From positions 36,524-100,523 of the forward strand of contig JBEKTP010000002.1 in the NCBI GenBank assembly GCA_049515915.1: 64,000 bases of DNA. The letters run 5' to 3'. Source of the DNA: Patescibacteria group bacterium (GTDB lineage Bacteria; Patescibacteriota; UBA1384; UBA12157; JAENIV01). The position numbers were made by a program, and so were the translations under genes. The stretch's first letter is position 1. Each line of letters begins with the position of its first letter. The notes below the pieces were generated by a model. It was not told where the DNA came from. It worked only from the letters and a program-made list of their open reading frames with translations, and did not search any database. Below are positions 16,797 to 55,891 of the stretch, in pieces.

Positions 16797-19700
16797 TCAT
16801 TCCTTATCGATGATATCGGAAAGCATGATTTTCTTTTCGACCGAAGCAATCAGTTTGCGAGTTTTAACGACCGAATCCGGCGAAACGGAAACCGAAGTCG
16901 CCCCTTCTTTAACCATCAGTTCGGCGATTTCCGGATAAGTCGTCGCCGCCTGACCGCAAATCGAACAAGTGATATTGTGGGCACGGCAGGCCTTAATCAC
17001 ATGGGCAATCGACAAGGTCACTGCCTCATCTCGTTCGTCAAATTCAGCCGCCATCGTTTCATTATCACGGTCAATCCCTAAAGTAAGTTGGGTCAAATCA
17101 TTTGAGCCAATCGAAATGCCATCGATGCCTTCCTCGATAAATTTATTGATTAAAATCACGTTCGAAGGAATCTCACACATCATCCAAAGTCGGAAGTCCG
17201 GGCCTTGTTTTAAACCCGAATCGGCGATCAAAGCTTTGACTTTTCTGAGCTCGTCGATAGTTCGGACAAACGGAATCATCAGCCATAAATTTTTGCTATT
17301 TTTACGGACTTTTTTAATCGCTTCCAATTCCAGCTTAAATAAATCCGGTTCTCTAATATAGCGGCTGGCGCCGCGATAACCGATCATCGGATTATTTTCA
17401 ACCGGCTCGATATCCTTGCCGCCCTCTAGGTTCCGGTATTCATTCGTTTTAAAGTCAGTCGCCCGATAGACCACCGGCCGCGGGAAAAATGCTTGGCAGG
17501 TCATCAGCAACCCTTCTTCGAGCTTACTAATATAGATGCTGGTCTTGCCTTCATTAACCAAGGCACGCGGGTGCTTGCCGATTTCAGCGATCATAAATTC
17601 CGCCCGCATCAGTCCGACGCCGTCGCAAGGCAATTTGGCCACTTTTTCGGCGGCCGAAGGCTCACCCAAATTAACATAGACTTTGGTGGCGGTGATTGGG
17701 ACCTCCTCGGCAAAACCACCCATGTCATCTTGATGGGCCGGTGCCTCTTCGCGAGAGACTTTGCCTTTATAAACCAGGCCTTTAGCGCCATCAACCGAGA
17801 CCACTTGGCCCATCGTTAAGGTATGAGTGGCGGTGCCGGAACCGACAACACAAGGAATCCCGAGCTCTCGGGAAACTATTGCTGCATGGCTTGTTTGTCC
17901 CCCGGTGTCGGTGACAATTGCCGCTGCTTTTTTCATGGCCGGTACATAGTCGGGCGAGGTCATTTCAGTAACTAAAACATCACCCTTTTTTACTTCATCA
18001 ATTTGATCGGGAGAATGAATAATTTTGACTGGCCCCGATGCCAACCCGATCGAAGCGGCTAGACCTTTCAAAATGACATTTGCTTTTGACTCTTCCTGCC
18101 CAGACTCCGGCGTTTCACCTTTTTGATTTTTAATATTTGATTTTTGATCTATCGTCGTAATCGGTCTCGACTGGACAAAATAAATATCTTTACCTTCAAT
18201 CGCCCACTCCGTATCTTGCGGAAAGTGGTAGTGATTTTCGATTTGTCTACCAAACTCGGCGACTCGTTTGATTTCTTCGTCGGAAAGTTTTTGTAATTTT
18301 TGTTCGTTTTTTAGCAAACTGACATGTTTATCGGCATTGCCCACTTTAGCAATTTTCCAAGGTTGCACATTAACTTCTTTAATTTCAATTTTCTGATCTT
18401 CTTTGTTAACAACATAACGGTCAGGAGTGACCGAACCAGAAACAATCGCTTCACCTAAACCAAATCCTGCCTCGATCACAATTTTGCTTTTATCATTGTC
18501 AACCGGATTGATCGTAAACATAATGCCAGACTTTTCAGACTGGATCATCTTTTGGATGGGAATGGCAATACCCACTTTCATATGATCAAAATTGTTAATC
18601 TTACGATAATAGATTGCCCGGGCCTCAAATAACGATGCCCACGACATTTTCACTGCTTTGACAACTTCGGTGCTCCCAGAGACATTTAAAAATGTTTTCT
18701 GCTGCCCCGCAAAAGAAGCCGAATTATGAGTAAAAATTCCGCCGAGACCAGCAGCAAAATTTTCATTTCCTGGCACAGAAAAGTCATAAACATCACCACA
18801 ATACTCAACCGGTTTAACTTCTTTAATTTCATCCCATAATACATCACGATCAAATATTCGATCAAATCCTCTAATATGGTACTGATCGAGAATTTGTTTA
18901 AATCTATTCTTGCTTAATCGTCCCGTGATCAAACCTTTATTCCAAGGAGCGGCTCCTTTTAAAAATCTTCCGGCCGCGTCATACCAAATATGGGTCTTGA
19001 TTTTTTCCTTATTCACCTGCTTTAAATAAAAAGAATGATGACATTTTTGACAATAAAATCTTAATCTGTTTTTATAACAACCCGATTTTTTTAATATAGT
19101 TTGACATTTCTGACAGCGGTAATGATACCTTTGTTCCTGTGGTAATCCTTCGATGAATTTTTGTCTGATTTGATAAGCAATTGTTTTCGAGACATCGATA
19201 TTTTCTTTAAATTCTTGATGATTACTCTTTTTCATATACTGTTCAACTAACATTTGTAATTTTTCTTTCTTATTTGGATGACTAAAGTTAACTCGCTCTT
19301 GAAAATTCTTAAAATCGGCATGAAGAATATAAATTGTTTGAGAATTATTTTTTTGCGTGAGAGAGAATCTCAAGCCTAATCTTTCAAGAAGTTTCACAAT
19401 TCCACCAATTAATAACGGGGAAGTCGAAGTATAACTTAAACTCGTATCAACCCCTCCATCTCCATCAAAACAACCTTGGAGAAACTCACCGATTAATTTT
19501 TCATTTAAGCTAAAAACAAAATCTGGTACCTTTTTAATCGAGCACGATCTTCCCTTGCCAATTTGAGCGGTCGGCTTTCCGGTTAGTTCATGAAGTAACC
19601 TGACAAGAGATTTGCAGTAAACCCTGATAGAACCTTTATTGATCTTTTGATTATGGTAGAGTCCTAATGATCGTAAAAAGTCCATAATTCTTCGCCGAAT

Positions 19701-20669
19701 AATAAGATTACTGCTCGTGACAACAACACAATTATTCTTATAAGTACATCCTTCAGCAACATAAATACCCAGAAAATAAAGCAGATCACCATTAATGATG
19801 ATTCGATTGGAGAGTGAATGCTGAATGCTCCAATTCATTGATTGATTGGTAATTTGAAGATAACCCGCTTTTTCAACGACATCGGCCCCTTGAACATAAT
19901 CCTTCACAACAAGATATTTTTGTTCTGCTCCTAGATTAGGGAGTTTTTTAATACAAGGTACCCGGCCATCTCTAATATTTTCGACAGCAATAGTCTTGGG
20001 CAACAAAGTCTCATTATCTAAAATAAGAGCTGAATGATTAGAACTAATCGTAATTTCTCGGCCAGTAGCGGTTTTTATTTTATAAAGTTTTTTATTGTTA
20101 ACGGGATGACGATAAAAATTGCTCACTTTCTTCCAAGTAATTCGACCATCTTTCATTGAGGGAATTCGAACCTTGCAAGCTAGATTTCCATCACTATCGA
20201 CCGTTCGACGATAGATATCTTTTATGGGTGAAAAAACCACCCGATCATTGATTTTGGCTATAATCTGCTCGTCTTCAGACACACTCGGTAGATCTTCAGC
20301 CGTGGCTGAAGATCTCACGGCTACAAAAATACTTGAGGCCTGAGTTGTGTAGAGCTTTTTATAAGCGGCGCTAATTTCGCTTTCTAAAGATTTTGGCATC
20401 GGCTCAGAAAGAATTTCTTTTTGGATATTGCTAGCCGTTTTATTTAACTCTTTCGAATTATTGACATCAAGATTTTTTAAAAGTTTATTAATGGTGATAT
20501 CCAAATTAGTGCTTTTGAGAAAATTAAAGTAAGCGGTGGAAGTAACAATAAAACCCGGCGGCACGGGCAAGCCCGCTCGGGTAAGTTCGCCTAAATTCGC
20601 GCCCTTACCGCCGACCAAACCAACGTCACCCTTGCCGACTTCCTTAAACCAAACAATATTTTTCGTCAA
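16797..20669 (-). CDS. ppsA: phosphoenolpyruvate synthase (pyruvate, water dikinase) interrupted by an intein
   Basis: N-terminal PEP/pyruvate-binding domain; phospho-His GGQTSHAAIVSRELGIPCVVG; C-terminal PEP-utilising domain; the VRSSATAEDLP / SASFAGQQ motif is split by ~521 aa. Confidence 0.85.
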   Translation of the reverse strand: MTKNIVWFKEVGKGDVGLVGGKGANLGELTRAGLPVPPGFIVTSTAYFNFLKSTNLDITINKLLKNLDVNNSKELNKTASNIQKEILSEPMPKSLESEISAAYKKLYTTQASSIFVAVRSSATAEDLPSVSEDEQIIAKINDRVVFSPIKDIYRRTVDSDGNLACKVRIPSMKDGRITWKKVSNFYRHPVNNKKLYKIKTATGREITISSNHSALILDNETLLPKTIAVENIRDGRVPCIKKLPNLGAEQKYLVVKDYVQGADVVEKAGYLQITNQSMNWSIQHSLSNRIIINGDLLYFLGIYVAEGCTYKNNCVVVTSSNLIIRRRIMDFLRSLGLYHNQKINKGSIRVYCKSLVRLLHELTGKPTAQIGKGRSCSIKKVPDFVFSLNEKLIGEFLQGCFDGDGGVDTSLSYTSTSPLLIGGIVKLLERLGLRFSLTQKNNSQTIYILHADFKNFQERVNFSHPNKKEKLQMLVEQYMKKSNHQEFKENIDVSKTIAYQIRQKFIEGLPQEQRYHYRCQKCQTILKKSGCYKNRLRFYCQKCHHSFYLKQVNKEKIKTHIWYDAAGRFLKGAAPWNKGLITGRLSKNRFKQILDQYHIRGFDRIFDRDVLWDEIKEVKPVEYCGDVYDFSVPGNENFAAGLGGIFTHNSASFAGQQKTFLNVSGSTEVVKAVKMSWASLFEARAIYYRKINNFDHMKVGIAIPIQKMIQSEKSGIMFTINPVDNDKSKIVIEAGFGLGEAIVSGSVTPDRYVVNKEDQKIEIKEVNVQPWKIAKVGNADKHVSLLKNEQKLQKLSDEEIKRVAEFGRQIENHYHFPQDTEWAIEGKDIYFVQSRPITTIDQKSNIKNQKGETPESGQEESKANVILKGLAASIGLASGPVKIIHSPDQIDEVKKGDVLVTEMTSPDYVPAMKKAAAIVTDTGGQTSHAAIVSRELGIPCVVGSGTATHTLTMGQVVSVDGAKGLVYKGKVSREEAPAHQDDMGGFAEEVPITATKVYVNLGEPSAAEKVAKLPCDGVGLMRAEFMIAEIGKHPRALVNEGKTSIYISKLEEGLLMTCQAFFPRPVVYRATDFKTNEYRNLEGGKDIEPVENNPMIGYRGASRYIREPDLFKLELEAIKKVRKNSKNLWLMIPFVRTIDELRKVKALIADSGLKQGPDFRLWMMCEIPSNVILINKFIEEGIDGISIGSNDLTQLTLGIDRDNETMAAEFDERDEAVTLSIAHVIKACRAHNITCSICGQAATTYPEIAELMVKEGATSVSVSPDSVVKTRKLIASVEKKIMLSDIIDKE
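18723..20285 (-). mobile_element. intein (~521 aa) with LAGLIDADG homing endonuclease and C4 zinc ribbon, inserted in ppsA
   Basis: Begins SVSEDEQ... just after AEDLP and ends ...GIFTHN with Ser at +1; block B TISSNH; LAGLIDADG-like LGIYVAEG and GCFDGDGG; C-terminal VYDFSV...IFTHN; CQKC..CQKC ribbon. Confidence 0.8.
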
Positions 20670-33199: not shown

Positions 33200-33263
33200 T
33201 TCCTCTCCTTTAGTAATCTATTATTAAATCATTATATCAGAAATTTTGTCTTAAGTCAATGGG

Positions 33264-33494
33264 CTAATTATTAGCGTACCAGTTTCCGGTTGATTTGCTC
33301 ACCTGTTCTTAACTATTCTATCCTCCCAAGCAGGAGGATAGACAACATTTTGCTCTTTTAAGAATGTTTGATTGGAACAAAATAAAAGCGTAAATAAGCC
33401 TGATAACCTGTAAGAAAATTCATCTTAAAAGCACAGAATGACAGCAAAATACATCAAAAAAAGCAACCGATAACTAGTACGCTAATCGATAATT
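33264..33494. repeat. ~230-bp element bounded by ~23-nt imperfect terminal inverted repeats (MITE-like), with an internal perfect 9-bp stem hairpin
   Basis: Left AATTAT-TAGCGTACCAGTT versus right reverse complement AATTATCGATTAGCGTACTAGTT; internal CTATCCTCC-CAAGCA-GGAGGATAG; no ORF inside. Confidence 0.45.
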
Positions 33495-33504
33495 TGGCTA
33501 ACAA

Positions 33505-33530
33505 AAACCGCCGCGGTTTTCCTACCGCGG
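33505..33530 (-). terminator. rho-independent terminator for the 33522..34190 gene
   Basis: Perfect 9-bp GC stem CCGCCGCGG/CCGCGGCGG followed on the minus strand by TTTTTGTT. Confidence 0.5.
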
Positions 33531-34190
33531 CGGGGTACTCTTTACCCTGAGCTGGGTCGAAGGGTCGCTTTCGCCATACGGCGGCTCAAAGAGCCAGCCT
33601 AAGCGCTCTTGCCACTTAGCCTCATAAGCCGCTCGCTTTTCTTTATAAAGAGCGGCGTCGATTGCCATTGGTAGTGGCACCCGAAAAGTCCGAAAGCCAA
33701 GCAGCAGTCGCCAGCAGTGTTCGACGTAGAACAGGTCGGAGATGAGCGGACTCACTTTGACAACCTTGCCGGCTGCTTGGGCCGCCTGGGCAAACTTGCT
33801 GACGCAATCGTTAAAGTGAAAACCACCTACCACTAACTCTTCTTCGGGAATCGCCCGGACGAGCCTGTTCCAATCAGGATATTTCTTTCTGGCCCATTTG
33901 CCATATTTGCCGTTGGGCAAGACAATGACGCCGGAATCAATCACCTGATCTTCCGGGCTAAGGCCGAAGTTCTTGGCAAGGTCCGAGACTTTCCCATCCT
34001 CGTCCCGGTGAACAATGACGGCTACTCGATATCCCCTTTTCCTAAGAAAGGCCACTGCCCTCGAGGGGATAACGAACATCTTTTCCAGCTGCTCCAGCGA
34101 TATCTCCGAATCGTAAAGCCGGATACGCGCCTCGTTTTCTTCGTGAGCCGTAATGACTGCGTGCGGAAAAAGTAAGACGAGCGCTTTCAT
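33522..34190 (-). CDS. hypothetical protein in a GC-rich island
   Basis: 222-aa ORF with clearly higher GC than flanking genes; no recognisable motif. Confidence 0.45.
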   Translation of the reverse strand: MKALVLLFPHAVITAHEENEARIRLYDSEISLEQLEKMFVIPSRAVAFLRKRGYRVAVIVHRDEDGKVSDLAKNFGLSPEDQVIDSGVIVLPNGKYGKWARKKYPDWNRLVRAIPEEELVVGGFHFNDCVSKFAQAAQAAGKVVKVSPLISDLFYVEHCWRLLLGFRTFRVPLPMAIDAALYKEKRAAYEAKWQERLGWLFEPPYGESDPSTQLRVKSTPPR

Positions 34191-34276
34191 CTCTTTCGCC
34201 TCCCTTTAAGGCAAACGTATTATATCAGCGAAGAGTAAAGATTTCAACCCTCGCATTAAGCTTTTTGGCGTGGGAG

Positions 34277-34305
34277 TTGACAAGGCAAATGGTCTTTGGT
34301 ACCAT
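34277..34305 (+). promoter_or_regulatory. sigma-70-like promoter TTGACA-17-TACCAT with TG extension, upstream of the 34437 ORF
   Basis: Hexamers read from the sequence. Confidence 0.35.
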
Positions 34306-34436
34306 ATTGAGGTCAGAAAAACCCCAGCACAATAGCTTCCTGACTTATTGAACTACGTTCAATCACGCAGGAGTGCTGTCTGCGGGGCAAGCAAGGATCT
34401 GACCCTTGAGGCCAGATTTTTGTTTTAGACACATCT

Positions 34437-34715
34437 TTGGGCGGGAGGGAAAGGTTGACTTACGACGATATCTTCAACGCCGCGAGAATCGAACAGCACA
34501 TTTCAGCAAAAGGAGAAGAAACGATCGTCGAACCCGAATCGGTGGCTCAAGAACTCGGAATCGAACCCGAGAAAGCAAGAAAAGCGCTCGACATTCACGT
34601 CGGCCTCAAATCGATGCGGCGAAAAGGAAAGGCCTACGCTTTTCCCCGCCAACTTCCTCGCCAAGATCCCCATCACGAGGCGGCTCGTAACATGCTGCCT
34701 CATCTTCACCCCTGA
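34437..34715 (+). CDS. hypothetical small protein in a GC-rich island
   Basis: 92-aa ORF preceded by GGGAGGG; may initiate at an in-frame TTG. Confidence 0.4.
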   Translation: MGGRERLTYDDIFNAARIEQHISAKGEETIVEPESVAQELGIEPEKARKALDIHVGLKSMRRKGKAYAFPRQLPRQDPHHEAARNMLPHLHP

Positions 34716-34722
34716 TTTCCCC

Positions 34723-34757
34723 GTTGAGTTGTCAGCCCGTCTGCCGAAAGGTAGGCG
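34723..34757 (+). terminator. rho-independent terminator with GAAA tetraloop
   Basis: 12-bp stem AGCCCGTCTGCC/GGTAGGCGGGCT with two G:U pairs, followed by TTTTCTT. Confidence 0.5.
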
Positions 34758-34864
34758 GGCTTTTCTTATCATAAACACCGGCGTGATATCAAAAACCGCT
34801 CAAGCGGCAAAGGTAATTAACGAAATTCAATAGCAAAGATCTAAAAAATGAATTCGACAAAGAT

Positions 34865-36382
34865 TTATTCCCATTCCATCGTGGCCGGCGGTTTATTGGT
34901 AATATCATAAACAACACGATTGATAGCGGGGATTTCATTGGTAATTCGGGTCGAGATTTTTTCTAAAATCGGATAAGGAATCTTCGAAAAATTAGCGGTC
35001 ATCGCATCTTCTGATTCAATAATCCTTAAAACAATTGGGTGTTTATAGCTTCGCTCATCGCCTTGAATACCCACACTTTTAACTGGCAAAAGCACGGCAA
35101 AACTCATCCAAATCTTCTGCCAGTAGGGACTTTCGCGGAGTTCTTCCTCAATAATTCGGCCGGCCTCTCTTACAATTTTCGCTTTTTCTTGAGTGACTTC
35201 TCCTACAATCCGAACCGCCAGACCTGGGCCAGGAAAAACCTGCCGGCTTAATAATTCATGAGGAAGTTTTATTTGCCGAGCAATTGCTCTGACCTCATCT
35301 TTATACAGATCCTTCAACGGCTCATAAATTTTTAATTTTAAATTAGGGGGCAATCCGCCCACATTATGATGAGACTTTATACTTGAGGAGTTCTTGGTTA
35401 TTCCGCTTTCAATGCGATCTGGATAAATTGTTCCCTGAATAAGATAAGTAGCCTTAAGAGTCCGGGCGATTTTTTCAAAAATTTTAATAAAAAGATGACC
35501 AATGATTTTTCTTTTCAGCTCGGGTGAAGCGACCCCTTTTAGCTTTTTAAAATATTGGTGGCTGGCATCAATAATCACCAGTTTTAGATCAAAATGCGAG
35601 AAGATTTTCTTGAAATTTTCCGTTTCACCGTAACGCATCAAACCAGTGTCAACATAAACCGCAGTTAAATTTTTGCCGATGGCTTTACTGACCAAAATGG
35701 CAGCTACCGAAGAATCAATGCCGCCGGAAAGACCAATAATCGCTTTTTTGTTCTTTAAGATAGTTTTTGCTTCTAAAATGATCGCCGTTTTGTTTATCAG
35801 GAGATTTTTTTTAGATTTAATCTTACAAATGCCCACAAAATTTTTAAGGATTTCCTGGCCAGCTTTCGTGTGGGTGACCTCTGGATGAAATTGGACCCCG
35901 TAGATTTTTTCGATCGTATTTTCAATCGCCGCCATTTTGGTCTTATCTGTTTTGGCGACGATTTTAAAATCTTTTGGTAATCTTTCGACAACGTCGCGAT
36001 GGTTCATCCAGACATTCTGCTCCGGTTTTAAACCCCTAAATAAATCACTTTTAACATCTAATTTTAATTTGGTCGGACCATATTCGCCCGCTTTGCCCGG
36101 ACTCACCTTCCCACCTAAAATATGGGCGATTAACTGATGACCATAACAAATACCCAGCACCGGCAGTTTTGCCTGAAGTATCTTTTTGGTCACAACCGGC
36201 GCATTTTTAGCGTAAACCGAATAAGCCCCGCCGGAAAGGATAATTCCTTTAAAATTTTTTAAACTTTCCAAGGTAATCTTATCTGCAGACACAATAGAAT
36301 TTTCAATTCCAAGGTCTCTTAGACGACGGGCAATGAGATGACAATATTGGCCACCGAAATCGATTATAATAATTGTTTCCAT
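34865..36382 (-). CDS. guaA: GMP synthase (glutamine-hydrolysing)
   Basis: Class I GATase motif GICYGHQL; PP-loop SGGIDSSV; C-terminal dimerisation domain. Confidence 0.9.
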   Translation of the reverse strand: METIIIIDFGGQYCHLIARRLRDLGIENSIVSADKITLESLKNFKGIILSGGAYSVYAKNAPVVTKKILQAKLPVLGICYGHQLIAHILGGKVSPGKAGEYGPTKLKLDVKSDLFRGLKPEQNVWMNHRDVVERLPKDFKIVAKTDKTKMAAIENTIEKIYGVQFHPEVTHTKAGQEILKNFVGICKIKSKKNLLINKTAIILEAKTILKNKKAIIGLSGGIDSSVAAILVSKAIGKNLTAVYVDTGLMRYGETENFKKIFSHFDLKLVIIDASHQYFKKLKGVASPELKRKIIGHLFIKIFEKIARTLKATYLIQGTIYPDRIESGITKNSSSIKSHHNVGGLPPNLKLKIYEPLKDLYKDEVRAIARQIKLPHELLSRQVFPGPGLAVRIVGEVTQEKAKIVREAGRIIEEELRESPYWQKIWMSFAVLLPVKSVGIQGDERSYKHPIVLRIIESEDAMTANFSKIPYPILEKISTRITNEIPAINRVVYDITNKPPATMEWE

Positions 36383-36849
36383 TTTTACCTTTCTTACAAG
36401 GGTCTTTTCGTAAGATTAACATATCGATACCTTTTTTCAAGCCAAACCTTTCGACAATTCTCAGGGTAACTTCTCAATAAACTCGAAATAAAACAAAAAG
36501 AGCGATCGAGAATGACCCAATATTATTTTAAATTAATGATCATCTGTCGCTCTTTTTGATACTACCGTCTCGATGTTGCTGCAAACATCGACAAACCATT
36601 GGCAAACGAGTGCATCCTACCATCCTAAAATAAGATAGTAAGAAAAAGTTCACCAATCTTGCCGTATGATGCTAAGGTGCAATTGTTCCCTTTTGTCTTT
36701 GTTTCCCCTCTTTGCAGAATAATGCGAATATCAGTTAATAACTAAAAAACGGCAAGAAGAAAGTGTTTGAGTTTCTCTCCAGCACTTACCTCTCGTCGCT
36801 TCTTCCCCTCCTTGTTAAAGTACTTTTGATTTTCTGAATCAATCATAAC

Positions 36850-36878
36850 ATGGAAATTTTGGCTTGTCAAGCGTCGAA
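36850..36878 (-). promoter_or_regulatory. strong sigma-70-like promoter TTGACA-17-TATGAT on the minus strand, ~460 nt upstream of guaA
   Basis: Hexamers and spacer read from the reverse complement of 36850-36878. Confidence 0.4.
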
Positions 36879-36937
36879 TCTGTAAGGGCCCACTTGACAA
36901 ACATAAAATCTAGATTAAGATATCACAATTTTATCTG

Positions 36938-36971
36938 TTTAAAAACAACTGGCCGCGTCATCGACGCGGCC
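36938..36971 (-). terminator. rho-independent terminator for the 36995..37537 gene
   Basis: Perfect 9-bp stem GGCCGCGTC/GACGCGGCC with a 3-nt loop, followed on the minus strand by AGTTGTTTTTAAAC. Confidence 0.5.
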
Positions 36972-36994
36972 ATTCGAACCGTTCGGGCGTGGCT

Positions 36995-37537
36995 TCACGC
37001 TGCTACCGCCCGAGAATTGTCTTCGAGAATCCACACCATGAGAGCAGTCCAGTGCAGTTGGTCAGCCAGGTCGTCGCAAGTTCTGTAGAGCAGAACGGGT
37101 TCTGCCTCCTCTGCAAATTCGTAACGTCGAACCCCATAAGGACTATCATCGTCCAGCCGGACGTGATCGAGTAGCATCTTGATAAGTCTTGGCCACTCGA
37201 TCGGGAAAGTTGTTCGGCTCGACTCGGGCAAATCGTAATCTTCGATTAGTAACAGGCGATCAACGTCGAGACGCAGAGCGCTGCAGTTACCGACGCCATC
37301 CTTCGTATAGACGGTCAGAGCTTGGCTAGCAGCAAGCCGAAAGAGAATCTCGGAAAGCTTCATCCGCGCAACCAGCATTCGCCGGGCTTTTCGGCACCGG
37401 TCAACTAACTTAACGAGCTGCGCCATTGCCATTAGCAGCCATACTGCCAACAGAGCCAGACCGATTTTCATCCGCGCTCCTCCCGCTTGTTTGACCGAAA
37501 AAGCCAAGGACGTGCTCGCCGAAGGGCTCGCCATCAA
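36995..37537 (-). CDS. hypothetical membrane protein in a GC-rich island
   Basis: 180-aa ORF with a hydrophobic N-terminus; its first ~40 codons overlap the preceding ORF in another frame. Confidence 0.35.
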   Translation of the reverse strand: MMASPSASTSLAFSVKQAGGARMKIGLALLAVWLLMAMAQLVKLVDRCRKARRMLVARMKLSEILFRLAASQALTVYTKDGVGNCSALRLDVDRLLLIEDYDLPESSRTTFPIEWPRLIKMLLDHVRLDDDSPYGVRRYEFAEEAEPVLLYRTCDDLADQLHWTALMVWILEDNSRAVAA

Positions 37538-37952
37538 TCATCGGCAAGACCAACGAGCCCAAAAGTGAACCATAGCCGAGCAAGAAAAGAAGGACGACAC
37601 CAACCGCTGATTTCTTCTCTTCGCCAAAGAAGATCGGAATAGCCAAGAGACCACAGACGAGCCAGCTGAGGGCGAGGATGACCCGAAACCAGATCGCCTC
37701 ATACGGCAGTCGGAACCGACCGAAGAGGACGACCGACTCGACGATCAAGGGTAGTACGAAGAGCAGCGCAAACCACCAAAGAGCATGACGACGGTGACGG
37801 GCCTTTTCATCATCTTTTTGGCGCCGATCACTCACTCTTCTCTGAGCAGCCGAATCCATGATTTCCTCCCGACGAGACATAATGGCGCGGTCTTCTACAA
37901 ACGAACTCATCGCTCCTACTCTCTGCTTATTACAGACGAAACAAAATTGCAA
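37410..37952 (-). CDS. hypothetical membrane protein in a GC-rich island
   Basis: 180-aa ORF with three or four TM helices; low-complexity C-terminus overlaps the next ORF. Confidence 0.35.
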   Translation of the reverse strand: MQFCFVCNKQRVGAMSSFVEDRAIMSRREEIMDSAAQRRVSDRRQKDDEKARHRRHALWWFALLFVLPLIVESVVLFGRFRLPYEAIWFRVILALSWLVCGLLAIPIFFGEEKKSAVGVVLLFLLGYGSLLGSLVLPMIDGEPFGEHVLGFFGQTSGRSADENRSGSVGSMAANGNGAAR

Positions 37953-37960
37953 GTGATATG

Positions 37961-37995
37961 CAAAAACCCCGTCGACAATGCCCCGGGGTTTTTGC
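37961..37995 (-). terminator. bidirectional rho-independent terminator downstream of RNase J
   Basis: AAAAACCCCG-N12-CGGGGTTTTT, a perfect 10-bp stem flanked by A and T runs. Confidence 0.6.
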
Positions 37996-40402: not shown

Positions 40403-40592
40403 TCAAAAACTCCGTTTAGACCAATAGATGATTGGACAAATAGATGAAGATAGATTCAACTCTATTTCTCTAATAATCCATTAAACTCGCTAATCAGCGA
40501 TATTTTTTGAGATCCATTTCGATGTTGATTATATTATAGCACGAAATGGTTTTAATGTCAATGATGTTAAAAATGTTTTTTGGAAAGTGGAG

Positions 40593-40619
40593 CGCTGCCC
40601 TCGTCAGACGAGGGCAGCG
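40593..40619 (-). terminator. strong GC hairpin (11-13 bp stem) downstream of the 40638 gene
   Basis: CGCTGCCCTCGTC-AGA-GACGAGGGCAGCG; T run is weak. Confidence 0.35.
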
Positions 40620-40637
40620 CGTGGGGAAAGGCCGGCT

Positions 40638-40994
40638 TCACTTGACAGATTCTCGATGAGATTGCCACTGGATGTAGCCGGCGACCGACATGTAATTGGT
40701 GGCCTCCGTGAAAGGTACCAACTCGCCAACTGATACGAAACTCGCTCCGAGATCAGACGGTTTCCAGCCATTGACCGGATATATTGGCTGGAGCATGTAG
40801 CACTCCTTGACCTCAGCGTTGGTCCACCATGTCCCTGTGTTCTGGTGAACCCGCAATCGGAGATCACCTCCCAGCGACATGTAGTGAGACGCCGCCGTAA
40901 ACGGCTGGGCGGCCGGCGCGCATGGGTGTGTGGCCGCGTCAGCGACCGACACCACAATCACAAGAAGAACAACCAAAACAAGTACGACCCGCAT
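40638..40994 (-). CDS. small secreted W/Y-rich hypothetical protein in a GC-rich island
   Basis: Signal peptide MRVVLVLVVLLVIVVSVADA; the overlapping alternate frame 40604..40957 is Arg-rich junk. Confidence 0.4.
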   Translation of the reverse strand: MRVVLVLVVLLVIVVSVADAATHPCAPAAQPFTAASHYMSLGGDLRLRVHQNTGTWWTNAEVKECYMLQPIYPVNGWKPSDLGASFVSVGELVPFTEATNYMSVAGYIQWQSHRESVK

Positions 40995-41122
40995 CGGGAT
41001 CCTCCTGGGTACAACGATATCCGACGGATAAATATATCATAACGCGACCTGTTTGTCAATCATAGACATCAAAAAACGCCCCAGAAACTGAAATAGTTTA
41101 AGCGTTTTTTGAGCTTACCAAA

Positions 41123-41998
41123 TTATTGGAAATCTAAAGTGACCGACTTCGTTCCGCCCGATGTAATGGTTATGGTATAGGGCAGCGGACTGCCGTTAAC
41201 TAACTTAAGATTATAGGAACCGCCCGTCACCGTCGAGACTACATTGCCGCCGGTGATTTGATATGTTCCAACCGGCAAAGACAATGATATTGTCACCGGA
41301 CCAGGTTGGTTGCCTGAATAACGACCAATCCCAGTAAATTGATGTTCGCCGCTCGGAGAAAGATTGAGATTGACCGTGCAGACGCCGCCGGCATGGACAG
41401 CCATACACGCCATATCTCTCACCCCGTTAGCCGTCACATACAGCGATCCGCTAAGTGTGCCAGTGCCTGTACCGCCCGTGCCGCCAGTAGTACCAGTTGG
41501 CTGGAGCGCGAAATTTTGCGTCACAATAGAACCATTAGCCGCCTTTGGCCAACTCGCCCCACTAACTGTTTGGGCTGTATAGCCAGTCGCCGAAGCCGTA
41601 ATATTATAGGTAAAGACAATGGTTTTTTTTGTCGCTCTGACCGAGAATGGTCCATATTTCACATTAACACTATAAGTTGTGCTGGTTATCAGATTGAGAC
41701 TGTATGAGCCGTTAGTACCAGTTTTTACGGACTCATTTGTACCACTATAAAGACTGGTACTATTTGTGCATTGTACGGCCACGCCGGCACCGCTAATCGG
41801 TTTTTCTGTTACCTTGTTAGTCACTATGCCAGAAAGAACAGCGGTCGTACTGGAAACGCCCGGGCTAAGCGTTTGAGCCGAACTTACAATCGAGCCGTTG
41901 GCATAAGCCCACATGAAAGTCCCGACGGCCACCACAAAAACGCCGCCCAAAGTCCACAAGAGTGTTCTTGTTCTTTTGTTTTGAAGCCAATGATCCAT
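41123..41998 (-). CDS. secreted or membrane-anchored protein with CarboxypepD_reg-like beta-sandwich and G/T-rich linker
   Basis: N-terminal anchor, ISGAGVAVQCTNSTSLYSGTNESVKTGTNGSYSL fold signature, GGTGGTGTGT linker. Confidence 0.45.
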   Translation of the reverse strand: MDHWLQNKRTRTLLWTLGGVFVVAVGTFMWAYANGSIVSSAQTLSPGVSSTTAVLSGIVTNKVTEKPISGAGVAVQCTNSTSLYSGTNESVKTGTNGSYSLNLITSTTYSVNVKYGPFSVRATKKTIVFTYNITASATGYTAQTVSGASWPKAANGSIVTQNFALQPTGTTGGTGGTGTGTLSGSLYVTANGVRDMACMAVHAGGVCTVNLNLSPSGEHQFTGIGRYSGNQPGPVTISLSLPVGTYQITGGNVVSTVTGGSYNLKLVNGSPLPYTITITSGGTKSVTLDFQ

Positions 41999-42079
41999 TT
42001 TTCGCCTCCTTAAGAAACATTACCAAAAGATAATTCCTCTTGGATTACACATTTATTATGAATCGATGCCTTACCAATG

Positions 42080-42874
42080 TCAAATTTGAATCGCTAGAAG
42101 ATCTTTCGCCAAAATTACTTCGCCCTTGAAATATTTTTTGGCATCGGCTTTTGGGTTGTACTTTTGTAAATAAACCGGCGCTATGTGGGTGATGACCAGC
42201 TTTTTGACCCCATTTTCAGCGGCGAATTTCCCCGCCCGTGTGCCAGTAAAATGGGTTTTGGGATTAACTTCATCTGGCCAAGCGGCCTCGACAATAGCCA
42301 AATCAGCGTTCGCTATCGCCTTGGCCAATCCTTCTGATTCAACGCTGTCACCGGAATAAGCAAAGATTTTATTTTCTGATTCTAAACGATAACAAAACGC
42401 TTTAATATCAAGATTATGTTTAGCCAAAAATGACGAGACTTTAGTCTTATCGATTTCGATTCTTTCGCTGGCTGATAATTCTTTAATTTCCAGATTCTTA
42501 AGTTCTGGATTTTCGCCGATTATATCGACTATCTTTTTGATATTTTCTGATGTACTCGCTGGCCCAAAAATCTTCAAGGGTTTTTGGCGAACCGGCCACA
42601 AACCATGATCAGCCGGCGGCGAAATGGTGACCTGAAGTAAAGCGATTAAATCATTGATATGGTCGCCGTGCCAGTGAGAAATAAAAACCGCGTCAATTTG
42701 GTTGACATGGACTCCGATTTTTAAGAGTTGATCAACTGCCCCTCGTCCAAAATCAAAACAGAGATTTTGGCCATTTGTTTGAACCAAATATGTCGCCGAA
42801 TGTCTCTCCAACTCCGGTTGATAAGTTCCGCTACCCAATATTGTCAATTTCATATGGTTCCTTAATTTTGCCAA
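42080..42874 (-). CDS. MBL-fold metallo-hydrolase (RNase Z-like)
   Basis: LTILGSGT...HSATYL...IDAVFISHWHGDHINDL matches the RNase Z N-terminal pattern. Confidence 0.55.
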   Translation of the reverse strand: MAKLRNHMKLTILGSGTYQPELERHSATYLVQTNGQNLCFDFGRGAVDQLLKIGVHVNQIDAVFISHWHGDHINDLIALLQVTISPPADHGLWPVRQKPLKIFGPASTSENIKKIVDIIGENPELKNLEIKELSASERIEIDKTKVSSFLAKHNLDIKAFCYRLESENKIFAYSGDSVESEGLAKAIANADLAIVEAAWPDEVNPKTHFTGTRAGKFAAENGVKKLVITHIAPVYLQKYNPKADAKKYFKGEVILAKDLLAIQI

Positions 42875-42990
42875 GCACGCTATTTGAGATTTGTAAAGTA
42901 CGATAATTAAAATTTAAACTTTAATTATATCTTTACATTATTTTTAAACTTTGTTAAGCTCTGGCTAATTCCGCCACGGGAGAAAAAGCC

Positions 42991-43365
42991 ATGGCTTCTT
43001 TAGTCTCACGCGAGGACTACGAGCGTAGGGAGCTGGCTTCGGCCGCCGCCCTCGAGCTGGACAAAATCAGACTGGGTCAACTCGGCCAGATAAGAGGAAG
43101 CGTCGAGAAACTGGTCGCCTGGTTCGAAGAGAACTTCCGATCAGTCAGCCTGATCGAGCCAACCCAGACAGAATGTCTGTGGAAGGTCCTGACGAAGACA
43201 GGATATCTTTCGGAGAATGTCCAACAGATCGCTGATTTGATTGAGGCTGTTGGGCAAATCCAAATCATCCTGCGCGGGATCATCGCCGAACCCGTTTCCG
43301 CGCGGAAATCCATCCCCACGATCGAGAAGATGCGCGACTTCTGCCTCGCCCTCTGCCGCGCCTGA
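42991..43365 (+). CDS. hypothetical protein in a GC-rich island
   Basis: 124-aa ORF with high GC; no recognisable motif. Confidence 0.4.
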   Translation: MASLVSREDYERRELASAAALELDKIRLGQLGQIRGSVEKLVAWFEENFRSVSLIEPTQTECLWKVLTKTGYLSENVQQIADLIEAVGQIQIILRGIIAEPVSARKSIPTIEKMRDFCLALCRA

Positions 43366-43403
43366 CCGGCTAGGATTAGTATCTATTTTTGCATCGCCGA
43401 CCC

Positions 43404-43438
43404 AAAAGAGCCCTTGGCTTTCGCCTCGGGCTCTTTTT
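43404..43438. terminator. bidirectional rho-independent terminator between the island gene and pnp
   Basis: AAAAGAGCCC-N14-GGGCTCTTTTT, a perfect 10-bp stem with A and T flanks. Confidence 0.55.
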
Positions 43439-43484
43439 CGTATTATCTTTTTGTATTTTTGTACGATTTTGTAGTTCGTAGTCG

Positions 43485-45590
43485 TTATTCTTTGGCCGCT
43501 TTAATCGATAGCGAAACTCTTCCCCGCTCTTTATCGACTTCCATCACTTTCACTTTCACAATATCGCCAATCTTTAACTTATCCGATACTTTTTCGATTC
43601 GTTCCGGCGCAATTTGGGAAATATGGACCATCCCGTCTTTATTCGGCAGAATCTGAACAATGGCGCCAATTTCATTGCCGCGCATTCTATCTTTAAGAAT
43701 TGAGGTCACTGGACCTTCATAAATATTGCCGACCACCGCTTCTTGCGTCATCCCATCAATATAATCCATGGCTTTTTTGCTCATCACCGAATCAGTGGAG
43801 GCCACCGTCACCGTGCCGTCATCGTCAATATCGATACTGGTGATTTCTTTGCCGCCGCAATCTTCAATCAGTTTTCGGATATTTTTGCCGCCCGGACCGA
43901 TGATTTCGCCAATTTTATCAACCGCAATATGCAACGTTTGAATTCGCGGCGCAAACTTGGAAAGTTCTTTCTTCGGTTCTCTAATAATACCGGTGATTTT
44001 TTCGAGCAAAAAGTCGTTGGCCACGCGGGCTTTTTCGATTGCCTCGATTAAAATCTCGATAGCAATCCCTTTGAGTTTGGTATCGAGCTGAATGGCGGTA
44101 ATGCCTTTTTGGGTGGCCGTGATTTTGAAATCCATATCGCCGGCAAAGTCTTCAATGCCTTGGATGTCAGTAAGAATTTTGTGCTTTTTGCCGTCTTCCG
44201 AAGTAATCAAGCCCATGGCGATGCCAGAAACCGGCGCCGAAATGGGTACGCCCGCGTCCATCAACGCCAAGGTCGAGCCGCAAGTTGAAGCCATCGAAGA
44301 CGAACCGTTGGATGAGAGAACTTCTGAAACCACCCGAACGGTATATGGAAAGTCTTCTCGCGATGGAATCACTGGCAGCAAGGCTCGCTCCGCCAAAGCG
44401 CCGTGACCGATCTCGCGACGGGAAACCGAACGCATCGGCCGGACTTCGCCCGTTGAAAACGGCGGAAAGTTGTAGTGATGCATATATCGCTTGGTGCCTT
44501 CTTCTTCCATTGTTTCGATCGTCTGTTCCATCCCTGGCGAACCTAAGGTGACGATCGATAACACTTGAGTTTGGCCGCGGGTGAACAAGCCCGAACCATG
44601 GGTTCGCGGCAGTAAGCCGACTTCCATCGAAATGGGGCGGATTTCATCGAGCTTGCGACCATCGGGACGCAATTCCTTCGCCAAAATCGCCTGGCGGACT
44701 TCTTTCTCGAGGATTTTGCCGAACGCTTCCTTCAGTTCGATTTGTTTATAATTTCCTTCAAAATTTTCCAACACTTCTTTTTCAAAAGCCGAGATTTGCT
44801 CTTCGCGCTTTTGTTTGTCGATTTCAGAGACGACTGGACCCAATTTTTCGCCAAGATATTTTTTGACTTCGGCGACGATTTCCGATTCGCCAGGCTGTTT
44901 GGCAGTTTGTTTAGTTTCGGAAGCCAGCTCTTTTTGAATTTCAAGACCGGCTTGCAAAGCGGCATGGCCGAATTTAATCGCTTCACCCATTATTTTTTCG
45001 TCGATTTCTTTCGCCCCCGCTTCGAGCATCATGACTTTATCTTTAGTACCAGCCACCACTAAATCGAGAGTGGTTTTTTCAAGCTGGTCGTGGGTCGGAT
45101 TGACAACGAAATTGCCGTCAATTTGGCCGACGCGGACAGCTGAAACCGGCCCTTCAAACGGTGCCGCCGACTGCATCAACGCCGCCGAGGCGGCAATGAT
45201 TGAGACAACGTCAGGATCGTTTTCGTTATCGTAAGACAAAACGGTGATGACGACTTGAACATCATTCTTATAGCCCTTGGGGAAGAGTGGTCGAATCGGG
45301 CGGTCGATTAAGCGGCAAGCCAAAATGGCTGCATCGGACGGGCGGCCTTCGCGTTTAATAAAGCGCGAGCCAGAGATTTTACCAGCGGCATACAAACGTT
45401 CTTCATAATCAATTAATAAAGGGAAGAAATCGACATCTTCGCGCGGTTCTTCGGTACAAACGGCGGTGGCCAAAACAACCGTGTCGCCATAGCGGACGGT
45501 CACTGAGCCCGAAGCCAGAGAAGCCAATTTCCCGGTTTCGATAATCAGCTCTTTTTCACCAAGAGTGGTTTTGAATTCTTTTTTCATCAT
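43485..45590 (-). CDS. pnp: polyribonucleotide nucleotidyltransferase (PNPase)
   Basis: Two RNase PH domains plus KH and S1 C-terminal domains; 701 aa. Confidence 0.9.
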   Translation of the reverse strand: MMKKEFKTTLGEKELIIETGKLASLASGSVTVRYGDTVVLATAVCTEEPREDVDFFPLLIDYEERLYAAGKISGSRFIKREGRPSDAAILACRLIDRPIRPLFPKGYKNDVQVVITVLSYDNENDPDVVSIIAASAALMQSAAPFEGPVSAVRVGQIDGNFVVNPTHDQLEKTTLDLVVAGTKDKVMMLEAGAKEIDEKIMGEAIKFGHAALQAGLEIQKELASETKQTAKQPGESEIVAEVKKYLGEKLGPVVSEIDKQKREEQISAFEKEVLENFEGNYKQIELKEAFGKILEKEVRQAILAKELRPDGRKLDEIRPISMEVGLLPRTHGSGLFTRGQTQVLSIVTLGSPGMEQTIETMEEEGTKRYMHHYNFPPFSTGEVRPMRSVSRREIGHGALAERALLPVIPSREDFPYTVRVVSEVLSSNGSSSMASTCGSTLALMDAGVPISAPVSGIAMGLITSEDGKKHKILTDIQGIEDFAGDMDFKITATQKGITAIQLDTKLKGIAIEILIEAIEKARVANDFLLEKITGIIREPKKELSKFAPRIQTLHIAVDKIGEIIGPGGKNIRKLIEDCGGKEITSIDIDDDGTVTVASTDSVMSKKAMDYIDGMTQEAVVGNIYEGPVTSILKDRMRGNEIGAIVQILPNKDGMVHISQIAPERIEKVSDKLKIGDIVKVKVMEVDKERGRVSLSIKAAKE

Positions 45591-45623
45591 TCATTCTAGG
45601 CACGAGTTCGTAGAACAAGTAGC

Positions 45624-45645
45624 GATACAAAATAACTTTTGTATC
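45624..45645 (-). promoter_or_regulatory. rpsO-pnp intergenic hairpin (probable rpsO terminator or pnp leader processing site)
   Basis: Perfect stem GATACAAAA-TAAC-TTTTGTATC. Confidence 0.4.
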
Positions 45646-45678
45646 ATTATCTGCCCTACTGGTCGCGCATAATTTAAT

Positions 45679-45933
45679 TTATTTTTTAAGGCTTAAATCC
45701 TTGATTAATTTATCGTAGATTTTCGGGTCGCTTTTTCTTAAATAATTCAGCAAGCGGCGGCGTTTACCCACCATAATCAGCAAGCCCCGGCGGGAATCGG
45801 AATCTTTAGCGTGCTTTTTTAGATGTTTAGCTAAATCGGCAATTTTTTCGGTTAGCAAAACTACTTGAACATCGGCCGAACCAGTATCTTTTTTATGGGT
45901 TTGGTATTTTTTAATTAATTCAGTCGTTGTCAT
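45679..45933 (-). CDS. rpsO: 30S ribosomal protein S15
   Basis: S15 family sequence from MTTTELIKKYQ...; ORF is open to 45981 but the start is probably the ATG at 45933. Confidence 0.85.
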   Translation of the reverse strand: MTTTELIKKYQTHKKDTGSADVQVVLLTEKIADLAKHLKKHAKDSDSRRGLLIMVGKRRRLLNYLRKSDPKIYDKLIKDLSLKK

Positions 45934-46041
45934 TAATATTTTCCCTGATGTTAATTTAGCACATTTTTTGCCAAAAGGCAAGATAATTTCTCATTACTAA
46001 TTAAGAATTGGAGCAGGGAAAATTATTTAGAAATTAGAAAT

Positions 46042-50863: not shown

Positions 50864-50936
50864 CTGGTTGACTTTCCTTTAACGATATCATACCATGTGT
50901 TAAATTATTTATAGCAAGCGCTCTTTGGAGGTCGAC

Positions 50937-51737
50937 ATGCCAGAGGTGCCGATTCGGTTGATGCACGGTGATCAGTTCCGTCTGCTGACAAGCGCCCGAG
51001 TCATCGGAGATTTAGTGCTCGGACTCCTGGACTTCCCGCCTTACCCCCACCTCGGATTTGCCGACCATATGCCCGGCAACCCTTTTTTCCCGGGGGTGAT
51101 GAAGCTCTCCGCGATGTTCCAGCTCGTCCAGACTTTCTGCGCGGAGGCAACGCAAGGAAAGCTTTTCCCGATCTTGACGGGAATCCCACTAGTAAGATTC
51201 TACAAAGTGACCAAACCAGGAGAGGTCACCGTTCAGGCCAACGTCTTTCAAGATGGCTACGGCGGCGTGGCCACCTGTACGGTCAATGCCAACAGCAAAG
51301 AGCGTGCTTCGGCGATTTTCACCTTCGACATGAGCACCACGAGACCGCCGGAGACGATTCTGCCGCTACCACTTGAGCAAATCAACATCAAGATGGCGCA
51401 AGGTTTGATCAGCGGAGTCTTCAACTACAAAGGAAACGAGGTACTTCCGCTGGCTCATCTGGAAGTCATCCCGTTCCCGCTCGTCCTCGAGGCTCTCTGC
51501 CAGAACACGATTCAAGTGGGCTACAATATCGCCAGTCTGGCGAACGCCCTCTTCGTCGTCACTTACCTGAGGGACACTGTCTTTCACGGCACTGCCTCCA
51601 AAGGCATGCTCAACCTGCGCTCGAAAGTCGAATGGACCGAGAAGCGCGGTCTAGTCCATGCCGTCGCCAGCTGTGGCGAGTGGCAGCCGATCGTCTCGGG
51701 CGATTTCGGCTTCGCCATTCTTAACCCCAAACATTAG
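50937..51737 (+). CDS. FabA/FabZ-like (hotdog fold) dehydratase-family protein, apparently double-hotdog, in a GC-rich island
   Basis: LMHGDQFRLL...GFADHMPGNPFFPGVMKLSAMFQ matches the FabZ HxxxGxxxxP catalytic motif; GGAGG RBS 5 nt upstream of ATG 50937 (the track ORF starts at TTG 50925). Confidence 0.5.
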   Translation: MPEVPIRLMHGDQFRLLTSARVIGDLVLGLLDFPPYPHLGFADHMPGNPFFPGVMKLSAMFQLVQTFCAEATQGKLFPILTGIPLVRFYKVTKPGEVTVQANVFQDGYGGVATCTVNANSKERASAIFTFDMSTTRPPETILPLPLEQINIKMAQGLISGVFNYKGNEVLPLAHLEVIPFPLVLEALCQNTIQVGYNIASLANALFVVTYLRDTVFHGTASKGMLNLRSKVEWTEKRGLVHAVASCGEWQPIVSGDFGFAILNPKH

Positions 51738-51766: not shown

Positions 51767-51800
51767 CGCCCGCTCGAAAGAGCGGGCGTTGTCATTTTTA
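51767..51800 (+). terminator. rho-independent terminator with GAAA tetraloop
   Basis: CGCCCGCTC-GAAA-GAGCGGGCG followed by TTGTCATTTTT. Confidence 0.6.
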
Positions 51801-55702: not shown

Positions 55703-55891
55703 GATTTTATTTTACTATTTTGGAGTTAAAACCGCAATTTAAACGGGTTAGGACGTCCTCTCGTAGAGGCGCTGGATTAATCGTATTTGCCGAAACATCA
55801 AGTCCAATAATTGGCCGCATACCACTTCACCTTTCCCTTAAATTGTGGTTTAATATTACTACCAAACTTATCTTATTTCAAGAGTGAGAGC

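Follow-up and report, generated by a model that had tools for sequence, protein, structure and literature searches.

GC-rich accessory genes between housekeeping genes of a Patescibacteria genome probably form a persistent, clade-wide class

Gene content and base composition of the window

We analysed a 64,000-nucleotide stretch (hereafter the window) of contig JBEKTP010000002.1 from a Patescibacteria group bacterium (assembly GCA_049515915.1, positions 36,524 to 100,523), in which seven GC-rich open reading frames (ORFs), o222, o92, o180a, o180b, o118, o124 and o270, lie between conserved genes (Table 1). The gene set is typical of Patescibacteria, or candidate phyla radiation (CPR), with ftsK, guaA, RNase J (rnj), UDG (udg), PNPase (pnp), S15, S20, holA and a 5′-3′ exonuclease (exo), together with genes for a Mur ligase, FemAB, TsaD, a sortase, an SLH-domain protein and pyruvate phosphate dikinase (PPDK). 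The nearest RNase J genes in public genomes, at 79-82% identity, belong to metagenome-assembled genomes labelled Candidatus Saccharibacteria or Berkelbacteria. Comparisons were made with two contigs of the same species, L081 and L173 (~96% nucleotide identity to the window), and with contigs of related lineages.

A preliminary description of the sequence had reported five segments of about 55% GC or more on a background of ~35-40%. Measured values are less extreme: the window has a mean GC content of 43.9% (SD 5.7% in 300-nt windows), and segments 1 to 5 have 48.3, 47.5, 50.2, 53.0 and 56.6% GC, which places them at the 90th, 85th, 97th, 94th and 100th percentile of windows of the same length. 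The GC maximum of the window falls in ftsK at the 1.5-kb scale and in the SLH-domain gene at 0.5 kb. The segments were also drawn loosely. Segment 1 takes in an AT-rich miniature inverted-repeat transposable element (MITE; 33.9% GC at 33230-33500), segment 2 the leader of guaA (38% GC at 36383-36990) and segment 3 the gene o291, whose codon usage is host-like. The anomaly thus stands as a property of a class of genes, with an overstated contrast and with o291 wrongly included. The flanking genes had been named correctly, as Pfam matches to ftsK, guaA, RNase J, UDG, the MBL-fold protein, PNPase, holA and the 5′-3′ exonuclease confirm.

Table 1 Coordinates of genes, promoters, terminators and repeats. 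Positions refer to the window unless a contig is given; promoters and terminators are predictions
Feature	Position	Strand	Properties
o222	33522-34190	-	GC 54%, GC3 62%
o92	34437-34715	+	GC about 52%, GC3 55%
guaA (GMP synthase)	34865-36382	-	Pfam; host-like composition, 39.7% GC
o180a	36995-37471	-	GC 53.5%, GC3 57%
o180b	37410-37910	-	GC 54%, GC3 57.5%
o118	40638-40994	-	GC 56%, GC3 64%
o291	41123-41998	-	N-terminal transmembrane segment; CarboxypepD_reg (PF13620, 36.9 bits)
MBL-fold protein (RNase Z-like / Apyc1-like)	42080-42874	-	Pfam; host-like composition
o124	42991-43365	+	GC 56%, GC3 70%
o270	50925-51737	+	GC 56.2%, GC3 71%
Promoter of o222	34247-34219	-	TTGAAA-17-TATAAT
Promoter of o92	34277-34305	+	TTGACA-17-TACCAT
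Promoter of o118	41059-41031	-	
Promoter of o124	42884-42913	+	
Promoter of o270	50868-50896	+	
Terminator of o222	33508-33533	-	10-bp G/C stem, T-runs on both sides; dG -22.2 kcal/mol, z -4.1
Terminator of o92	34734-34761	+	12-bp stem; dG -25 kcal/mol, z -6.3
Terminator of the o180b-o180a unit	36950-36972	-	dG -21 kcal/mol
Terminator of rnj, bidirectional, at island boundary	37960-37995	-	dG -22.6 kcal/mol
Hairpin 3′ of o118	40595-40621	-	13-bp G/C stem; dG -28 kcal/mol, z -7.5
Terminator common to o124 and pnp	43404-43438		hairpin
Terminator of o270	51767-51788		
MITE-like element	33262-33492		~230 nt, 34% GC; terminal inverted repeats 33270-33296 and 33460-33486, 27 nt, 85% complementary
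plsX, contig L084	14243-15166		
plsX, contig L086	16747-17661		
plsX, contig L088	14900-15814		

An intron and an intein lie elsewhere in the window. The PPDK gene (16797-20669, minus strand) contains an intein with a LAGLIDADG homing endonuclease. An Rfam group I intron match (10155-10359, 82 bits) sits inside the anticodon loop of a tRNA-Asn(GTT) gene (10107-10383, minus strand), which a standard tRNA scan overlooked and which was recovered by ARAGORN with introns allowed.

Seven ORFs form a second codon-usage class

The cores of the GC-rich segments are the seven ORFs, with 52-56% GC and 55-71% GC at codon position 3 (GC3), against a host median of ~44%. Each ORF was scored by the fraction of G/C at codon position 3 where position 2 is A/T (the S3-given-W2 index). 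The index is 0.52-0.74 in the seven ORFs (0.56 for o180b), and the other ORFs of 100 aa or more score 0.22-0.45, among them ftsK (0.45) and the SLH gene (0.39), with the single exception of a doubtful 106-aa ORF at 717-1037 (0.52). With a value of 0.38, o291 falls outside the class. The codon tables of class and host diverge only at codons with A/T at position 2: host genes prefer G/C endings after a G/C at position 2 and A/T endings after an A/T (AAA, GAA, TTT, AAT, GAT, TAT), whereas the seven ORFs take G/C endings in both contexts. In host genes the fraction of G/C at position 3 is ~0.55-0.70 after a G/C at position 2 and ~0.33 after an A/T, and host dinucleotide ratios are extreme (AA/TT 1.41, CG 1.33, GC 1.23, AC/GT 0.70). 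When pooled, the seven ORFs lie at a delta-star distance of 183 from host genes in dinucleotide signature, compared with a null of 45 ± 16 (maximum 126) and a value of 45 for ftsK and the SLH gene together. The seven ORFs therefore form a genuine compositional class distinct from host genes, with the atypical composition expected of a genomic island or islet.

These ORFs are real genes under purifying selection. GC at codon position 2 is the lowest of the three positions in each, the ORFs remain open in the comparisons with L081 and L173, and most are also predicted as genes in independent assemblies. The ratio of nonsynonymous to synonymous differences (pN/pS) is 0.26 for o222 (against L081), 0.33-0.39 for o180a, 0.49 for o180b, 0.35 for o118 (against L173), 0.20 for o124 and 0.07 for o270; core genes range from 0 to 0.15. 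One could suspect ordinary noise in composition, or ORFs that arise by chance in non-coding DNA of high GC content, as the raw GC content of ftsK and the SLH gene resembles that of the segments and GC-rich DNA yields long overlapping ORFs (34406-34778 and 36995-37952, for example). This explanation is extremely improbable given that the codon index and signature part the class genes cleanly from ftsK and the SLH gene, and given the coding pattern of GC across codon positions, the purifying selection, the conserved orthologues described below and the independent gene calls.

Three causes of the high GC content were considered and rejected. Selection on mRNA structure is not apparent from folding z-scores, which, with terminators included, are -1.2 for o124 and -2.5 for both o270 and o222; only o92 stands out, at -4.6. 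Translational selection for expression would not account for the low GC3 and codon index of the ribosomal protein genes S15 and S20, and strand or orientation is excluded as class genes lie on both strands.

The GC excess persists in syntenic orthologues

The most GC-rich gene of the window, o270 (segment 5), has eight homologues among 5.8 billion proteins, and every one that can be placed adjoins holA. Orthologues with 49-67% amino acid identity to the window protein occupy the holA junction in contigs L084, L085, L086, L087, L088, L174, L175 and L176, representing five further lineages. They are as GC-rich as the window gene: gene and locus GC are 56.2% and 43.9% in the window, 58.1% and 42.1% in L084, 58.3% and 43.4% in L086, 59.9% and 43.1% in L088, 58.6% and 41.9% in L174, and 53.2% and 39.1% in L175. 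GC3 is 0.67-0.71 in five lineages and 0.59 in L175, where the whole background is ~4 points lower.

A similar pattern holds for o124 (segment 4). Its orthologues, 57-62% identical and 52-58% GC, again adjoin the MBL gene, in three related contigs carrying two distinct alleles; this gene is the conserved divergent partner of o124, and the pair is kept in L169, L171 and L172. A third such gene, encoding PlsX, is found between FemAB and TsaD in three relatives, with 59% GC and a GC3 of 0.66-0.68. The corresponding interval of the window is only 109 nt long (55702-55811), so plsX has been lost from this lineage or lies elsewhere. The GC excess of o270, o124 and PlsX amounts to about 12-17 points, with position also kept.

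For core genes, identity between lineages at four-fold degenerate sites of conserved residues is 0.30-0.41, against a random expectation of 0.25-0.27. Synonymous sites are thus near saturation, and an import that was passively ameliorating should have shed most of its GC3 excess. The syntenic GC-rich genes nevertheless differ from their own hosts by a delta-star of 172-223, comparable to the deviation of the window orphans, and the window orphans are closer in signature to these syntenic genes (57-88) than to their host (174). GC-richness is therefore a long-lived property of a class of genes in this clade, one that old residents and species-restricted genes have in common.

One way to explain a persistent offset would be a neutral relic: one or a few ancient transfers into the ancestor of the clade from a GC-rich source, drifting slowly towards host composition with no maintaining force. 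A signature common to the class would fit, and the lower GC3 of o124 in L171 and L172 (0.54, against 0.70 in the window) is possibly partial amelioration. We consider such a relic improbable. Core four-fold sites are near saturation and the GC3 of o270 dips only with its background, so that its offset tracks the background and does not decay; in addition, the species-restricted members cannot be ancient residents of the gaps in which they now lie.

Class genes differ from their neighbours in rate as well. Their proteins evolve faster, with 55-73% identity for o270 and 57-70% for PlsX compared with 76-91% for neighbouring proteins (L084, L086 and L088), while their synonymous change is lower. 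Within the species, synonymous divergence (pS) is 0.09 for o124, which is flanked by the MBL gene (0.49) and pnp (0.30), 0.047 for o270 against 0.14-0.21 for its flanks, and 0.05-0.07 for o180a and o180b against 0.10-0.24. Between lineages, o270 reaches a four-fold identity of 0.55 (window and L084) and o124 one of 0.65 (window and L169), well above that of core genes. This reduction would fit a constraint acting on synonymous sites that also keeps GC high, or else more recent lateral exchange of the genes between lineages.

Species-restricted genes occupy two variable gaps

Related contigs (L001-L003, L088-L093 and L169-L174) share a backbone that reads pnp-udg-rnj-ftsK-HK-RR-GAF/PAS in one part and S15-DHH-S20-S26-DUF2207-holA-(o270)-exo-Mur-FemAB-(PlsX)-TsaD in the other. 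The GC-rich genes of the window do lie between conserved housekeeping genes, as the preliminary description had it, namely in gaps of the pnp-udg-rnj-ftsK-HK-RR and holA-exo backbone. Two of these gaps vary widely. The rnj-ftsK gap spans 5.3 kb in the window (o180b, o180a, guaA, o92, o222 and o71) and 0.17 kb in L003, 0.64 kb in L090, 2.3 kb in L001, about 2.8 kb in L091 and 5.3 kb in L002, with unrelated content. The udg-pnp gap spans 3.1 kb in the window (o118, o291, MBL and o124), 0.13 kb in L088, 0.67 kb in L090 and 1.15 kb in L174. No homologue of o222, o92, o180a, o180b, o118 or o291 was found in any related contig outside the species. Comparison with relatives therefore gives a divided answer on whether the GC-rich genes are recent arrivals: absence at the same site holds for five of them (o222, o92, o180a, o180b and o118), species-restricted and in variable gaps, and fails for o124 and o270, which are syntenic and GC-rich in relatives.

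From these comparisons, both gaps appear to be hot spots of gene gain, loss and rearrangement. They also hold AT-rich genes, guaA and MBL, so composition is no guide to what is insert or backbone, foreign or native; guaA is not between rnj and ftsK in L001, L002, L003, L090 or L091. Part of the variation is rearrangement of native genes, since the glycosyltransferase (GT), PIG-L and DedA genes that fill the rnj-ftsK gap of L002 occur at 3.9-7.3 kb in the window. This GT/PIG-L/DedA(VTT) set lies at 3932-7304 in the window, ~30 kb away, and at 3405-5963 in L002, with GT and PIG-L fused in the window. Turnover within the GC-rich class is real, in that L169 and L172 carry unrelated GC-rich ORFans at one site. 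These are a 191-aa ORF at 3917-4492 of L169 and a 182-aa ORF at 3799-4347 of L172, at one position and on one strand in the TrmB/pnp interval; when the two were compared, no homology was detected.

The udg-pnp region differs sharply between strains. A stretch at 40564-45987 (o118, o291, MBL, o124, pnp and S15) is only 86.6% identical to L173 6839-12281, with many indels, and its flanks are 96% identical to L173, as is o124 within it. The pattern resembles a mosaic produced by recombination. In L173 the MBL gene is possibly degraded, and an IS481-family insertion lies between S15 and DHH.

Promoters, terminators and marks of mobility

Each class gene is predicted to form, or belong to, its own short transcription unit, with a sigma70-like promoter (several near-consensus and with an extended -10 TG) and a hairpin terminator. 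In island 1, o222 and o92 diverge from predicted back-to-back promoters (34219-34305) set 30 nt apart, and island 2 is a two-gene unit, o180b-o180a. All seven hairpins reported in the preliminary description were found; their folding free energies (dG) lie between -21 and -28 kcal/mol and their z-scores between -4 and -7.5. Six of the seven have the G/C stem-loop, U-tract and position just past a stop codon of an intrinsic terminator, the exception being the hairpin at 40595-40621, which lacks a clean U-tract. They had been taken as private to the segments and foreign in style. The hairpin at 37960-37995 belongs to rnj, however, and that at 43404-43438 is shared with pnp, and relatives without these islands carry equally strong GC hairpins after rnj. 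Compared among themselves, the seven hairpins showed no common sequence family.

The leaders of two genes stand out. The 130-nt leader of o92 (34306-34436) is predicted to form two strong hairpins (z = -4.6 against shuffles for the entire transcript), and the coding sequence of o92 differs between strains at only 3 of 279 nt, an unusually high conservation. The guaA gene has a leader of ~450 nt (36383-36870, minus strand) that starts from a near-consensus promoter at 36870-36842, contains hairpins and shows merely 1-2 differences per 100 nt against L081. An Rfam scan of island 1, island 2 and the guaA leader gave no credible match, and the guaA leader may be an uncharacterised regulatory leader.

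Mobile elements were found next to the islands. The MITE-like element at 33262-33492 has terminal inverted repeats, is missing from L081 and has an autonomous relative of 1.1 kb in L173 (5700-6838), inserted at window position 40563/40564, whose 346-aa ORF gives weak matches to an InsA zinc ribbon and to Mutator/IS256-type transposases; the family thus has the repeats, presence/absence polymorphism and autonomous partner of a MITE and its insertion sequence (IS). The MITE abuts island 1 and carries no GC-rich gene. Each insertion, the MITE as well as the IS in L173, sits immediately upstream of the -35 box of a strong promoter on the minus strand. No integrase, recombinase or transposase was found in the window, tRNA genes occur only at 10.1 and 16.6 kb, leaving no tRNA target at the islands, and searches for direct repeats or attC-like sites at the island boundaries gave only chance-level repeats apart from those of the MITE. 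The short direct repeats that had been proposed as a check on the islands are accordingly no more frequent at their edges than chance.

Scans for a vector were similarly unproductive. PHROGs returned one marginal match among the orphans (o270, E = 4.5e-4) and PADLOC none; no relatives were found in IMG/VR for the o222 family, o124, the o270 family or o118, or in PLSDB by tblastn with o222 and o270. It is conceivable that the units were carried in by a phage, plasmid, integron or insertion sequence now decayed, as they are small, self-contained and arranged in series, and insertions of an active IS/MITE family vary between strains at two island edges (33262-33492, occupied in the window, and window position 40563, occupied in L173). 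Such an origin seems highly unlikely: the phage, defence, viral and plasmid scans gave the single marginal match, the window has no integrase or recombinase, the hairpins form no common family, the units are in mixed orientations, and the IS and MITE are AT-rich and lie outside the GC-rich genes.

The source of the genes bears on the original proposal of repeated acquisition of small foreign cassettes, perhaps from a GC-rich host or partner organism, taken here as recent import with GC content not yet ameliorated. Atypical composition and signature, the confinement of o222, o92, o180a, o180b and o118 to the species, the turnover of gap content with unrelated GC-rich ORFans at one site in L169 and L172, and a distant o222 homologue that is not GC-rich would all be expected of such cassettes. 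A donor, which should hold closer homologues than the relatives of the host do, did not emerge: among the 5.8 billion proteins all detectable relatives of o270 and o124 are inside this clade, and the nearest o222 homologues are on Patescibacteria-like contigs. In addition, o270 and o124 are syntenic and equally GC-rich across near-saturated synonymous divergence, promoters and terminators are of host type, boundary repeats, integrase and tRNA target are lacking, and AT-rich guaA and MBL share the same gaps. Recent import is hence contradicted for two of the five segments and unproven for the other three, whose genes are species-restricted; as a general account we regard it as unlikely.

Predicted protein families

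The orphans had been described as belonging to no recognisable family, except for a FabZ-like hotdog protein. This is borne out for o92, o124, o118, o180a and o180b, for which scans of Pfam, NCBIfam, PHROGs and PADLOC gave weak or no matches, and requires revision for o222.

The 222-aa o222 protein has no Pfam match of its own at E ≤ 0.1. A profile search yielded 95 family representatives, and the family motif VVGGFHxxDCV contains three residues (G123, F124 and C129) that are invariant in 50 members, with C129 aligning to the CV motif of PDB 2a67. Nine of the 50 relatives match PF00857 (Isochorismatase) at E ≤ 0.01, and the family profile matches isochorismatases in the PDB at E = 0.01. An AlphaFold2 model is of moderate quality (pLDDT 62), and its top 50 Foldseek matches in the PDB all have isochorismatase, nicotinamidase or amidase folds (E from 5e-4; TM-scores 0.34-0.49). 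Based on this model and the motif, we read o222 as a divergent isochorismatase-like cysteine hydrolase. It shares with PF00857 proteins the three-layer alpha/beta sandwich and the G-x-x-x-D-C-V motif with its invariant, presumed nucleophilic Cys, and differs from them in scoring below every Pfam threshold and in that no counterpart could be assigned to the Asp that normally closes strand 1 or to the catalytic Lys of the triad.

The 270-aa o270 protein combines a FabA/FabZ-type hotdog domain with a second, ApeI-like hotdog-like half. The N-terminal domain exceeds the Pfam cut-off for the FabA/FabZ family (PF07977, 31.7 bits against 23), and Foldseek matches include FabZ and TesB structures. Scores far under the NCBIfam FabZ equivalog cut-offs indicate that o270 is not a FabZ orthologue. 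In contrast to FabZ and FabA, it is twice the length of FabZ, has the second half and belongs to a family restricted to this clade; on inspection, an invariant Ser (S62) seems to stand where FabZ has its catalytic Glu.

The remaining products are small. The 92-aa o92 protein (no match in Pfam or in a PDB sequence search) is 97.8% identical in L081, where it is separately called as a gene (5916-6176). Island 2 encodes predicted membrane or exported proteins: o180a has 158 aa from its ATG (the ORF extends to 37537; the L081 gene call there has 161 aa) and an N-terminal hydrophobic segment, and o180b has 166 aa from its ATG (ORF to 37952) and is a predicted multi-pass membrane protein with only a weak DUF7937 match. 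The 118-aa o118 protein has a signal-peptide-like N-terminus, and the 124-aa o124 protein gave no match in a PDB sequence search.

Discussion

We interpret the GC-rich patches as, on balance, a clade-wide and persistent class of accessory genes in gaps of gene turnover, and not as a set of recent imports. The seven genes would then be short units lodged between conserved housekeeping operons, belonging to a long-lived class marked by 52-60% GC, G/C-ending codons after an A/T at position 2 and a dinucleotide signature of its own. Its old members (o270 and o124, plus PlsX of the relatives) would have kept position and offset despite near-saturated synonymous sites, and its young members, o222, o92, o180a, o180b and o118, would be confined to this species and to two hot spots where the unrelated occupants of relatives are partly GC-rich. 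Recombination within the Patescibacteria gene pool is the probable route by which accessory genes come and go in these gaps, and a gene-specific, non-mutational force, either synonymous selection or GC-biased gene conversion, probably keeps them GC-rich; the offset would thus not be the fading memory of a donor. We favour a gene-specific force over un-ameliorated foreign origin with moderate confidence. The more specific proposal, that a subset of genes is held 12-17 GC points above the chromosome by a non-mutational force, surviving saturation and tracking the background, is offered as a tentative one.

Several points weigh against this interpretation. Persistence is documented for three genes only (o270, o124 and PlsX), and the sample comprises ~64 kb of one genome and fragments of 20 kb or less from relatives. 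Unlike core genes, o270 of L084 resembles the window gene more than it does those of L086 and L088. This pattern, and the lower synonymous change of o124 and o270, could reflect later lateral exchange of these genes between lineages, which would revive the exchange of cassettes. Finally, the only distant o222 homologue with readable DNA, 35% identical and from another CPR genome, has host-like composition, so high GC is not a fixed trait of the o222 family, and that of o222 itself could be derived from a donor.

Atypical GC content is routinely taken as a mark of recent transfer, and island predictors depend on it. Here the same composition is found in species-restricted and in deeply conserved genes, and composition can therefore neither date nor prove transfer in this clade. 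An actively maintained offset would speak to a long-debated question, whether bacterial GC content is set by mutation alone or also by selection or biased gene conversion, and genomes of this clade would then offer a natural two-compartment system in which to measure the forces acting on bacterial base composition. In practical terms, one orphan (o222) has gained a fold assignment, and two putative hot spots of Patescibacteria gene turnover have been identified.

Among known systems, integron cassette arrays resemble the window in their small single-gene units and serial arrangement. We rejected this candidate, as the hairpins include no attC-like family and there is no intI; the window units also have their own predicted promoters and mixed orientation, with housekeeping genes interspersed. 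A closer parallel is offered by hot spots of gene gain and loss, or genomic islets. Oliveira, Touchon and Rocha reportedly described such hot spots, flanked by core genes, in many bacteria in 2017. As in islets, the accessory genes of the window cluster in few core gaps, with contents that vary between close relatives and include many ORFans. The window differs in that integrase, tRNA target and prophage remnants are absent, o270 and o124 are as old as the backbone, and the occupants exceed the host in GC content, the reverse of the AT-richness usual for accessory genes.

Within Patescibacteria, hundreds of islands and transfers have been predicted from composition, mostly exchanged among Patescibacteria, on the assumption that amelioration hides old transfers (PMC12455944, mSystems 2025). 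The in-clade homologues of o270 and o124 are compatible with such internal exchange, whereas the compositional contrast seen here persists in syntenic orthologues. The reading of the segments as recent imports follows the logic of the amelioration framework. Lawrence and Ochman are said to have set this out in 1997, with atypical GC3 as a mark of foreign DNA that decays to the host value after transfer. In the genes studied here, this decay of GC3 is absent for o270 and PlsX and weak for o124.

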